A stretch of DNA of 64,000 bases from Porphyromonas sp. Lineage in GTDB: Bacteria > Bacteroidota > Bacteroidia > Bacteroidales > Porphyromonadaceae. The stretch spans positions 2,050 through 66,049 of the forward strand of contig JBHACZ010000024.1 in assembly GCA_041854825.1 (NCBI GenBank), given 5' to 3'. Made by a program: the position numbers and the translations under genes. The notes under the pieces are model-generated. The model worked only from the letters and a program-made list of their open reading frames with translations. It ran no database searches and was not told the DNA's origin. Position 1 is the stretch's first letter; every line of letters starts with the position of its first letter. This document shows, one piece after another, positions 5,563 to 58,938 of this stretch.

Positions 5563-5570
5563 CAAAAGTA
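5563..5570 (-). promoter_or_regulatory. Bacteroidota -7 promoter element for rnhB
   Basis: TACTTTTG on the minus strand matches TAnnTTTG, about 24 nt before the ATG. Confidence 0.6.
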
Positions 5571-5691
5571 CAAAAAAACACGCCCATTGTCAAGCCCTCA
5601 ACACTAGGTCAAGCCCCCAAGAGCAAGGAGAGAAAGAGACATCGCGAGAGCTAGCACCTCCCTGCCAGAGACCTTCATCATCCATCGCCCG

Positions 5692-5922
5692 CCCTCTCCC
5701 GAGACCGAATAGAAATACTGCGCGCGCGATCACCCGCGCGCGTACGCGTACGGCAGACTAAGCACCGAAGTGTCACCCGAGTTCCTATTGAAGTGTCAGG
5801 GGAGACCCTATTGAAGTGTCGGGGGAGTCCCTATTGAAGTGTCCGAGGAGTTCCTACTTGAGTGTCCCTCGAGTACCTACTTGAGTGTCGAGGGAGTACC
5901 AAGGTAAGTGTCCGAGGAGTAG
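5692..5922. repeat. Family A array (A1): 7 x 23-bp units plus RY-alternating terminus
   Basis: GTGTC cores at 5770, 5793, 5816, 5839, 5862, 5885, 5908 (exact 23-bp period); unit about CCTATTGAAGTGTCnnnnGAGT; left end is the reverse complement of the terminus seen at 19335-19403. Confidence 0.95.
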
Positions 5923-6043
5923 CAAGGCATGAGGCAGGACACCCACACATTAGGACAGATCATGACACTGGGGCAAACCCTTACGCCCTCTGACATGTTC
6001 TATCTAAGCAATGCCCGACCGTTCGGGCTGTCATCTCACCAGT

Positions 6044-15251: not shown

Positions 15252-15324
15252 TGATTCGCCTGGGGCTCGAACCCAGGACCCCATCATTAAAAGTGATGTG
15301 CTCTGCCAACTGAGCTAGCGAATC
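15252..15324 (-). tRNA. tRNA-Lys (anticodon UUU)
   Basis: Minus strand GATTCGC..GCGAATC-A acceptor, TAGCTCAGTTGGCAGAGC D arm, CATCA-CTTTTAA-TGATG anticodon arm, CTGGG-TTCGAGC-CCCAG T arm. Confidence 0.95.
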
Positions 15325-19012: not shown

Positions 19013-19220
19013 AAGGATTCTACCGAATCCACCATCAAAAAACACGACAAATCCCGCACGCTCCGCTCTACACCTCGTAGCAAGGTTGCCCAGCTGTGCA
19101 GGGCGACCATCGCAAGCCCCGACTTTCGCCCATACGCCCGACCGCTTCAAGATGCTCCCCATCATCTCCGCACACCCATTTTTGTCTATCCCTCGCACAC
19201 TCCCCCGTCTACCTACTGAG

Positions 19221-19403
19221 TACTCCTCTGACACTTCAATAGAGAGTCCTCCGACACTTCAATAGGGACTCGAGGGACACTTCAATAGAGACTCGGGCGA
19301 GTCCCTATTGAAGTGTCGGAGGACTTATCGATACTCAGTCAGCCGTACGCGTACGCGCGGGTATATACGCGCGCACACGTATTATATATTCGGTCTCGAG
19401 AGG
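19221..19403. repeat. Family A array (A2): 3 units, 1 inverted unit and RY terminus
   Basis: GACAC cores at 19230, 19253, 19276 (23-bp period); inverted unit at 19299-19324; terminus GCCGTACGCGTACGCGCGGGTATATACGCGCGCACACGTATTATATATTCGGTCTCGAGAGGG. Confidence 0.95.
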
Positions 19404-29016: not shown

Positions 29017-29235
29017 TCTCCCGACACATCACTGAAGTCTCCCTCGACACTTCAGTGATGTCTCCCCCGACACTCAAGTAGACACTCCCCAGACACTCAA
29101 GTAGGGAGTCACTCGACACTCAAGTAGGGACTCGGGTGACTCCCTACTTGAGTGTCCGAGGAGTACCAAGGTGCTAGTCCCCTTACACGTACGCGCGTGC
29201 GTATATACGCGCGCACGCGTATATAATATCGGTCT
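29017..29235. repeat. Family A array (A3): 5 units, inverted unit(s) and 42-nt RY tract
   Basis: GACAC cores at 29023, 29046, 29069, 29092, 29115 (23-bp period); inverted CCCTACTTGAGTGTCCGAGGAGTACCAAGGT; terminus ending ATATAATATCGGTCT. Confidence 0.95.
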
Positions 29236-29342
29236 ACGGGGATGGTACGATTTTTCTCATCGGGAGACCTCCCAGTTCGCCCCTCCATCACAGCCCCCAT
29301 ACCGACGGCACAAGTAGTCCGAATATACCCTGGACATGTCGG

Positions 29343-58225: not shown

Positions 58226-58299
58226 GGTCCTATAGCTCAGTCGGTTAGAGCACCTGACTCATAATCAGGGAGTCCTTGGTTCAAGCCCAAGTGGGACCA
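58226..58299 (+). tRNA. tRNA with CAU anticodon, most likely tRNA-Ile2 (lysidine)
   Basis: GGTCCTA..TGGGACC-A acceptor with C4-G69/C5-G68, TAGCTCAGTCGGTTAGAGC, CCTGA-CTCATAA-TCAGG, CTTGG-TTCAAGC-CCAAG. It lacks the initiator C1-A72 mismatch and GGG/CCC anticodon stem. Confidence 0.9.
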
Positions 58300-58479: not shown

Positions 58480-58573
58480 CTTCTTCAGTTCACGTCGTGG
58501 TCTGTACAGATCACGACGTGAATTATACAGACCACGACGTGGTTTATACAGAGCACGACGTGAACTGGAGAAG
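58480..58573. repeat. Family B array (B3): 4 x 21-bp units
   Basis: Cores at 58491, 58512, 58533, 58554; ends CTTCTTCAGTT / AACTGGAGAAG. Confidence 0.95.
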
Positions 58574-58587
58574 TCTTCCTCGAAGCG

Positions 58588-58700
58588 TCCCTAGACACTT
58601 CCTCGATGTGTCCCCCGAGTGCCTACTGAAGTCTCCCCCGACACTTCAGTAGACACTCGGGGGACACATCAATAGGGAGACGAGGGAGACCCCAATAGAG
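58588..58700. repeat. Family A array (A4): about 5 degenerate 23-bp units with internal fold-back
   Basis: GACAC-like cores at 58594, 58617, 58640, 58663, 58686; GATGTGTCCCCCGAGTG / CACTCGGGGGACACATC inverted repeat. Confidence 0.88.
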
Positions 58701-58938
58701 AGGCGAGCCGCACCGCCATAGTCAGACCTTACTATTGCCCCGATACTCCCGCAGTCAGTTACCTAGAGAGCACAGGTGACAGTCATAGAGACGACGGAGG
58801 GCATCGCCGTGAAGGGCGATCAGCCAGACGGCAGATAAGCCTGCCGGAGCTATCCGTTTGATGTTTTGCGCTTTCATATCTTACATAGCATCGGAGCGCT
58901 GGGCGCAGTTAGGGGTAATATCCTTATCTTTGCAATGT

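Follow-up and report, generated by a model that had tools for sequence, protein, structure and literature searches.

BrickBuilt is a MITE of Porphyromonas gingivalis and P. gulae (Klein et al. 2015, PMC4596501). It is so far the sole minisatellite-bearing MITE described in Porphyromonas and has been treated as a species oddity. Proteobacteria carry the REP/BIME and REPIN-RAYT systems, species-specific palindromic intergenic repeats that are long-lived and co-evolve with a trans-acting protein. Streptococcus pneumoniae carries BOX, which has the layout boxA-(boxB)n-boxC (PMC10969869). Here we describe family A, a lineage-specific modular repeat cassette that is non-coding and belongs by design to the class of BrickBuilt and BOX. 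The window, that is, the whole 64-kb stretch of DNA that was analysed, corresponds to positions 2050-66049 of contig C24 from a Porphyromonas sp. genome (G000), a 91% complete MAG of 2.0 Mb in 102 contigs with a GC content of 54%. Among named organisms, Porphyromonas sp. COT-290 has the RNase HII closest to that of G000, and the genome falls in the same GTDB genus as the BrickBuilt carriers G037 and G039 (by PMC4596501, P. gingivalis and P. gulae).

Anatomy of the family A cassette

The initial annotation placed at positions 5692-5922 of the window a bounded element, made of a 23-bp array and a conserved terminus of about 60 bp and found in both orientations. TRF identified a 23-bp array at 5767-5927 (A1), in agreement with this proposal, although the element extends about 13 bp past 5922, to 5935. 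The reverse complement of 5692-5762 aligns with the ends of two further copies in the window, A2 (19322-19399) and A3 (29161-29238), and with 20 more genomic copies; A1 is inverted relative to A2 and A3, as had been claimed. The terminus is conserved, but is more exactly the last 23-nt module of the array followed by a tail of 29-58 nt.

The A1 tail lies at 5699-5751 and reads GTACGCGTACGCGCGCGGGTGATCGCGCGCGCAGTATTTCTATTCGGTCTCGG on the minus strand, with its outer end (CCGAGACC) at 5699-5706; GGTC within the CGGTCTC motif is invariant. The adjoining array (5752-5935, minus strand) contains eight 23-nt modules in strict register, which are, from the tail outwards, one truncated hybrid, three T modules (GACACTTCAATAG...), two K modules (GACACTCAAGTAG...), an L1 module (GACACTTACCTTGGTACTC) and a degenerate L0 module. 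This copy has no inverted module and was negative in the fold-back test (z -0.66).

Both A2 and A3 are on the plus strand. The A2 array (19184-19344) comprises L0, an L1-like module (GTCTACCTACTGAGTACTCC), three T modules, one inverted T module and the last module GACTTATCGATACTCAGTCAGCC, followed by the tail at 19345-19399 (GTACGCGTACGCGCGGGTATATACGCGCGCACACGTATTATATATTCGGTCTCGA). Its inverted T module forms a perfect long hairpin, with a predicted single-stranded DNA fold of -52 kcal/mol (z -8.6). The A3 array (29023-29183) starts with two S modules (GACACTTCAGTGATGTCTC), which resemble a 19-bp palindrome, continues with three K modules and one inverted K module, and closes with GAGTACCAAGGTGCTAGTC, an L1-type module in reverse complement. 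In the A3 tail (29184-29238), purines and pyrimidines alternate perfectly over 42 nt, and the tail terminates in CGGTCTACG. A fourth copy, A4 (58588-58710), is a degenerate, tail-less array with modules in mixed orientation.

A4 abuts a 21-bp array of a different family, family B (CACGACGTGAACTGTACAGAC), at 58486-58562, and the same kind of abutment is found at an unrelated locus of the genome (C54:17120-17385), which points to composite or nested clusters of arrays. Rfam matched the window only at two tRNA genes (15252-15324 and 58226-58299).

Across the genome, family A keeps its 23-nt register right up to where the tail begins. Each module consists of a 19-bp quasi-dyad and a free 4-nt G/C patch: in a logo of 117 units, positions 1-19 are conserved, while positions 20-23 are G/C-biased and carry 0.16-0.30 bits, matching the variable patch of about 4 nt noted in the initial annotation. 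The typical order runs from a degenerate L0 through L1 (GAYAYNCACCTTGRTACTCC or the variant CCTACTGAGTACTCC) and K (GACACTCAAGTAGGGACTC) to T (GACACTTCAATAGGGACTC) or S modules, after which come one or two inverted modules (a perfect long hairpin), the last module and the tail. The last module (GAGTATCAAGGTGTTAGTC or GAGTCTTCAGTACTCAGTC) corresponds to L1 variants read in reverse complement. This order is maintained across unrelated loci, and most arrays fold back via their one or two inverted modules.

Tails vary in sequence and length, with a median of 50 nt measured from TACGCG to GGTCTC. Their purine/pyrimidine alternation is 0.88, where the genome scores 0.50. The longest alternating run has a mean length of 21.9 nt in tails and 6.2 nt in the genome, where the 99.9th percentile is 16. 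The tail is predicted to be prone to forming Z-DNA or cruciforms. The outer edge of the cassette is sharp, information content reaching zero within two or three bases past CGGTCTC(GG). In contrast, the opposite edge is soft and information fades over two degenerate modules.

Genome-wide distribution and gene context

Using an nhmmer profile and a covariance model, we searched the whole genome for the terminus and found 23 strong and about four weak copies. The unit search returned 117 units in 26 clusters, with no solitary unit, and its reversed-pattern control gave no matches. Of the 26 clusters, 19 carry a tail that is significant by nhmmer, and in three others (C50, C54:17238 and C94) a short or degenerate tail was recognised by eye, bringing the tailed arrays to 22 of 26; those on C12, C36 and C83 and A4 are tail-less. 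No tail without an array was found in G000. The proposal of a bounded element whose terminus recurs with arrays elsewhere is thus borne out by these counts and by the sharp outer edge. Five of the strong tails cap arrays that belong to another 23-bp family, here called family C (GACTTAAGT.../GACTTACAGTAAGTC); the phase is kept across the junction, where a module ending in ...CC is followed by C/T-TACGCG. Family C comprises 42 loci, most of which are tail-less.

All 26 family A loci are intergenic. Both neighbouring genes are defined for 18 tails, of which 10 lie between divergent genes, five are co-oriented and two anti-oriented in tandem contexts, and one lies between convergent genes. An orientation bias toward downstream genes was rejected as largely an artefact of divergent regions, the tandem split of 5:2 not being significant. 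The genes beside family A are unrelated, including rnhB/copA, lysS, ruvA, groES-EL, grpE, nrfH, mlaE, an ECF sigma factor and TonB-dependent receptors, and a regulon was rejected because the downstream genes are unrelated, housekeeping genes.

The copies are 72-90% alike and are therefore old. Several contigs end in cassettes, which indicates that the cassettes break short-read assemblies. Separately, two contig starts (C11:1-100 and C87:1-110) and C86:8569 have ...CAAAGCTAGCAACTTTTTAATGCGTCAGCCCTG in common, probably the end of a collapsed multi-copy element, perhaps an IS, that is absent from the assembly.

The tail model had no match in 60 congeners, and a search of 185,000 species with the tail pattern gave single chance matches only, in high-GC taxa. 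Among 61 genomes, the unit pattern was found only in G000, with a related form (GAGACTCAAATAGGATC) at nine loci of G042, where it is without a tail. Family A is restricted to one species. We consider the chances about even that family A is a lineage-specific modular repeat that spread as a whole, has since become fixed and serves, through its dyad-cored 23-bp modules, as a target for a trans-acting protein.

Could the cassette instead act at the RNA level, as an sRNA or 5' leader with the CGGTCTC edge as transcript end and hairpins that act in RNA? BrickBuilt gives transcripts and promoter activity in E. coli, the predicted hairpins of family A are strong and an A/T-rich block (TATTATAT) directly precedes the CGGTCTC edge. 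We regard this explanation as highly improbable. The Bacteroidota -7 consensus is TAnnTTTG, which the A/T block does not fit, and genuine boxes are mostly located 46-215 nt further downstream (348 nt in one copy). Moreover, the variable tail length abolishes any fixed promoter spacing, the cassettes occur in both orientations relative to neighbouring genes and no Rfam family matches family A. The tail was likewise rejected as a canonical Bacteroidota promoter, given the same misfit and the varying spacing between its two conserved blocks. At A1, a -7 box (TACTTTTG, 5563-5570, minus strand) sits between the tail and the start of rnhB, so the cassette is not needed as a promoter.

Strain comparison and search for a mobilising transposase

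Five Logan contigs from other samples encode an identical RNase HII and four of these span A1; in all, A1 is spanned with the same number of units in 4-5 conspecific Logan contigs of other samples. Six conspecific sequences of the locus differ at seven sites over 700 nt, five of which are in the tail and the adjoining last module (5699-5774), while the 160-bp array has no variable site among the conspecific assemblies compared. The last module and tail of A1 form a variation hot spot relative to L023-L027, including C>T substitutions at CpG and an indel of 1 nt. A3 is structurally identical in one Logan contig (L157), with one SNP in the tail; its leftmost modules differ there, but at the contig end, where the difference is unreliable.

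The initial annotation proposed looking for empty sites in sister strains. None was found at A1 or A3, both of which are filled in the 5-6 conspecific metagenome assemblies examined (A3 in one contig). The region upstream of rnhB (window 5594-6010; L112, L113, L004 and L005) is a synteny breakpoint across Porphyromonas species, and relatives therefore offer no clean empty-site comparison for A1. The upstream neighbour of rnhB differs by species (copA, a TonB receptor, yjeF or an operon partner), and the downstream genes, encoding a beta-helix protein, a Na/H exchanger and DUF4301, are conserved.

To compare family A with BrickBuilt, we took the BrickBuilt unit AGACCATAGTATCCTCTCATATG from the supplement of PMC4596501, used it to locate P. 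gingivalis (G037) and P. gulae (G039) and fetched BrickBuilt_5. The AGACCATAGTATCCTCTCATATG pattern was found only in these two genomes and not in G000. BrickBuilt_5 has the TIR pair GAGACCTTTGCA...GCAAAGGTCTC with AAAAA on both flanks. Comparing family A with its leader, tail and units by blastn-short gave only 8-11-mers, of which shuffled controls give equally many. With respect to the 12-bp IS5-type TIRs (GAGACCTTTGCA / TGCAAAGGTCTC), the right end of family A (...TTCGGTCTC) matches the outer six bases only, and no counterpart was found at the left end. Thus, of the BrickBuilt architecture that had been proposed, the 23-bp minisatellite and a distinct end segment are present, but homology of unit, leader and tail and paired TIRs are not; the terminal GGTCTC is all that the BrickBuilt and IS ends have in common with family A.

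No IS with ends matching family A was found in G000, a weak absence given that the MAG is 91% complete. The only DDE_Tnp_1 match belongs to a truncated IS of about 690 bp (C89:36086-36775) beside a family C array, with 24-bp TIRs (TAATTAACGCGAATTCGGCGTAAG; TIR TAATTAACGCGAATTCGGCG) unrelated to the family A end, and the Y1 (RAYT) transposase domain PF01797 has no match in the genome. The 8-mer TCGGTCTC was discarded as an IS-end probe, as its 201 matches, common in coding DNA, make it uninformative. No target-site duplication was seen; the left boundary is not fixed to the base, so duplications cannot be scored, and the right flanks are heterogeneous and G-rich.

These data bear on the claim that family A is a MITE mobilised in trans. 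A classical MITE would have been moved, through its GAGACC-type end and TIR-like modules, by an IS5-family transposase that is missing from this incomplete MAG. That would account for a dispersed, species-restricted, multi-copy family with conserved internal order, and the GGTCTC of the sharp end equals the outermost six bases of the BrickBuilt, ISPg1 and ISNme1 TIRs. In addition, the BrickBuilt unit GAGACCATAGTA is identical over its first 8 nt to the ISPg1 TIR GAGACCATTGCA, suggesting that units of this design class derive from TIRs. That family A is a MITE moved in this way is nevertheless doubtful: only six of 12 TIR bases match, with neither a left TIR nor a detected duplication, and the sole DDE element is truncated with unrelated ends. 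Flanks of the TA/TNA type are expected for these IS5 groups, whereas the bases past GGTCTC are G-rich. The age of the copies and the lack of insertion polymorphism at two loci in 5-6 assemblies also count against it. What stands of the claim is that the cassette spread as a unit; a partner transposase, a second TIR, a duplication and an empty site were not found.

The ISPg1 TIR is given in PMC4596501, and the 23-nt unit of BrickBuilt_5 (L170:308-1298, P. gingivalis) begins with GAGACCAT, its first eight bases. The BrickBuilt minisatellite may, on this match, be a multiplied TIR-like site.

Search for a reader protein

Most of the 17 PF18291 (HU-HIG) genes in G000, and four in G042, are directly preceded by private 21-23-bp arrays, and a family C array lies upstream of the paralogue at C7:2483. 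Combined with the dyad symmetry of the unit cores and with array positions conserved across three species (see below), this could mean that family A arrays are fixed, vertically inherited cis-regulatory or nucleoid operator arrays read by an HU-HIG/wHTH paralogue, to which the tail is a local add-on and which were never mobile. However, none of the 17 paralogues in G000 has a family A array upstream, and none of the HU-HIG genes of G042 and G052 adjoins the homologous arrays of those genomes. The downstream genes form no regulon, and similarity across the whole cassette, including the non-dyad tail and the module order, at 22 non-homologous loci needs copying rather than separate origins. We therefore judge this explanation unlikely.

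The only regulators beside family A are a Rex-like regulator, an ECF sigma factor and a DUF2442 protein, in whose tail an HTH was read by eye rather than by a Pfam match, and none is compelling. No binder candidate emerged among the array neighbours and HU-HIG paralogues of three genomes.

Three HU-HIG paralogues (C7:2420, C11:386 and C83:2594, short) have a near-identical upstream region (AATTACCATTAAGTGTCAC ... TACCTTTGCAGTG) and are probably duplicated island genes. A word in this region, AAGTGTCAC, resembles the family A core.

Different 23-bp arrays at orthologous positions

In the sister species G052, whose RNase HII is 77% identical to that of G000, rnhB likewise has a 23-bp array upstream, oriented as in G000. 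The unit of this array (GATCATTCAATATCGAC) agrees with GACACTTCAATAGGGAC at 13 of 17 positions and belongs to a family for which the pattern gave about 90 matches spread over more than 45 loci, typically of three units with the palindromic core GATATTSAATATC and without a tail. In the congener G012, the array about 200 nt upstream of rnhB has 8.4 units and is built from a quite different word (GAGACGCTCTAACCTAGAGCCCC; 347 unit matches genome-wide). As a side observation, the G052 representative (L125, G052:C73:16990 onward) diverges from the conspecific Logan contigs L113/L115 right past the rnhB start codon, which indicates an insertion or a chimeric contig.

We then compared the genes flanking the G000 arrays with 39 array loci in G052 and 41 in G012 by tblastn. 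Arrays occupy orthologous positions upstream of rnhB and nrfH (C88) in both species, at the A2 neighbour in G012, at the C4 TonB receptor, C36 and C99 in G052, and perhaps at C61 in G012. In total, 6-7 of the 26 family A loci have a private, different 23-bp array at the orthologous gene-upstream position, an overlap based on partial sampling of draft MAGs that speaks against a simple and recent transposition. By a rough estimate that assumes about 1,700 intergenic regions, chance alone would put about 0.6-0.7 overlaps in each pair of species and about 0.02 in all three.

On these comparisons, the array positions appear to be older than the species or to have been re-used repeatedly, with each genome seemingly keeping one private word at all its loci. 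The overlap could instead reflect a common insertion preference, and under the MITE explanation, which here too we hold to be doubtful, the positions common to sister species would be due to a common target preference. The tailed arrays having tail-less positional counterparts in G052 and G012 implies turnover after speciation and is compatible with a MITE, while the triple coincidence at rnhB and nrfH, with about 0.02 expected by chance, argues against one. Only the G000 lineage has the tailed cassette, which must therefore either have displaced older arrays at these positions or have joined them, and this is evidence that it spread as a unit. Mobilisation of family A in trans is a plausible inference that must accommodate positional conservation; a trans-acting reader protein, or older arrays having been replaced, would fit no less well.

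A broader, tentative possibility concerns the genus as a whole. Ancient array positions, such as those upstream of rnhB and nrfH, might carry in each species a 23-bp word of its own, the set being rewritten in concert; we can picture, with the same reserve, tens to about 100 loci being rewritten as a trans-acting reader shifts its specificity or a new master cassette sweeps. BrickBuilt and family A might in that case not be ordinary MITEs but two dialects of a single protein-DNA system, and the tail might be a lineage-specific structural cap, although on each of these points we incline to the contrary.

A model for spread and function

According to our preferred reading, in which family A spread as a unit and is now fixed, the whole array-plus-tail cassette would have been copied to about 26 intergenic sites, mostly upstream of genes, in the G000 lineage. 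Copying may have occurred through non-autonomous transposition or through conversion or replacement of older arrays, and the copies would now be fixed. The modules are putative sites for a species-specific dimeric trans-acting protein, either transposase-derived or a reader of the nucleoid or regulator type. Such a reader would explain why each genome has one dialect and why other dialects are found at the same positions in sister species. With the protein bound and the DNA negatively supercoiled, fold-back and alternating tail may act locally as structural or topological elements in promoter-proximal DNA.

Phased 23-bp arrays in 5' intergenic DNA recur in several congeners with private sequences, and quite different end segments are possible. 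Different species have arrays at the same gene-upstream positions although the units are unrelated in sequence. Should this be true, a question about junk DNA becomes testable, namely which protein reads the words and how dozens of sites stay in step. Family A also offers a natural set of tracts, predicted to be prone to Z-DNA or cruciforms, between divergent promoters.

Comparison with known systems

Family A differs from CRISPR arrays, with their unique spacers of about 30 nt, in that its units abut and only the 4-nt G/C patch varies; the Rfam search gave no CRISPR match above threshold. The arrays upstream of HU-HIG/wHTH (PF18291) genes are found in the same genome and are similarly phased at 21-23 bp, dyad-cored and dispersed, but lack the tail and fold-back of family A. 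REP/BIME and REPIN-RAYT resemble family A in being species-specific intergenic palindromic repeats with some conserved positions; however, they consist of single or paired palindromes of 20-40 nt, whereas family A forms phased tandem arrays of 23-nt units.

BOX, compared here by description, is similarly a modular non-coding repeat in which tandem units of variable number lie between distinct, partly complementary end modules. It too is intergenic and, like family A, has no known mobilising enzyme. In contrast, its sequence and phylum are unrelated, its boxB unit is 45 nt long and it has no alternating tail.

BrickBuilt and family A have in common tandem 23-nt units without spacers and in variable number, an intergenic and species-restricted distribution of about 20-26 copies in the same genus, long predicted stem-loops, a distinct end segment closing in GGTCTC and a unit start of GA(G/C)AC. 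An element of the BrickBuilt kind is always intergenic, with about 10-20 copies and a limited host range, which agrees with the 26 loci of family A. Where BrickBuilt has a non-repetitive leader and tail on its two sides (up to 285 and 318 nt, respectively), 12-bp TIRs of the IS5 type and, in the case of BrickBuilt_5, a duplication of AAAAA, family A has a tail on one flank only. This one-sided, alternating CG/TA tail of 29-58 nt, the ordered module subtypes and the in-array inversion are found in family A only, which is without a left TIR and without unit, leader or tail homology to BrickBuilt. Judged from its sequence, family A thus appears to be a relative of BrickBuilt by design rather than a member of the same family.
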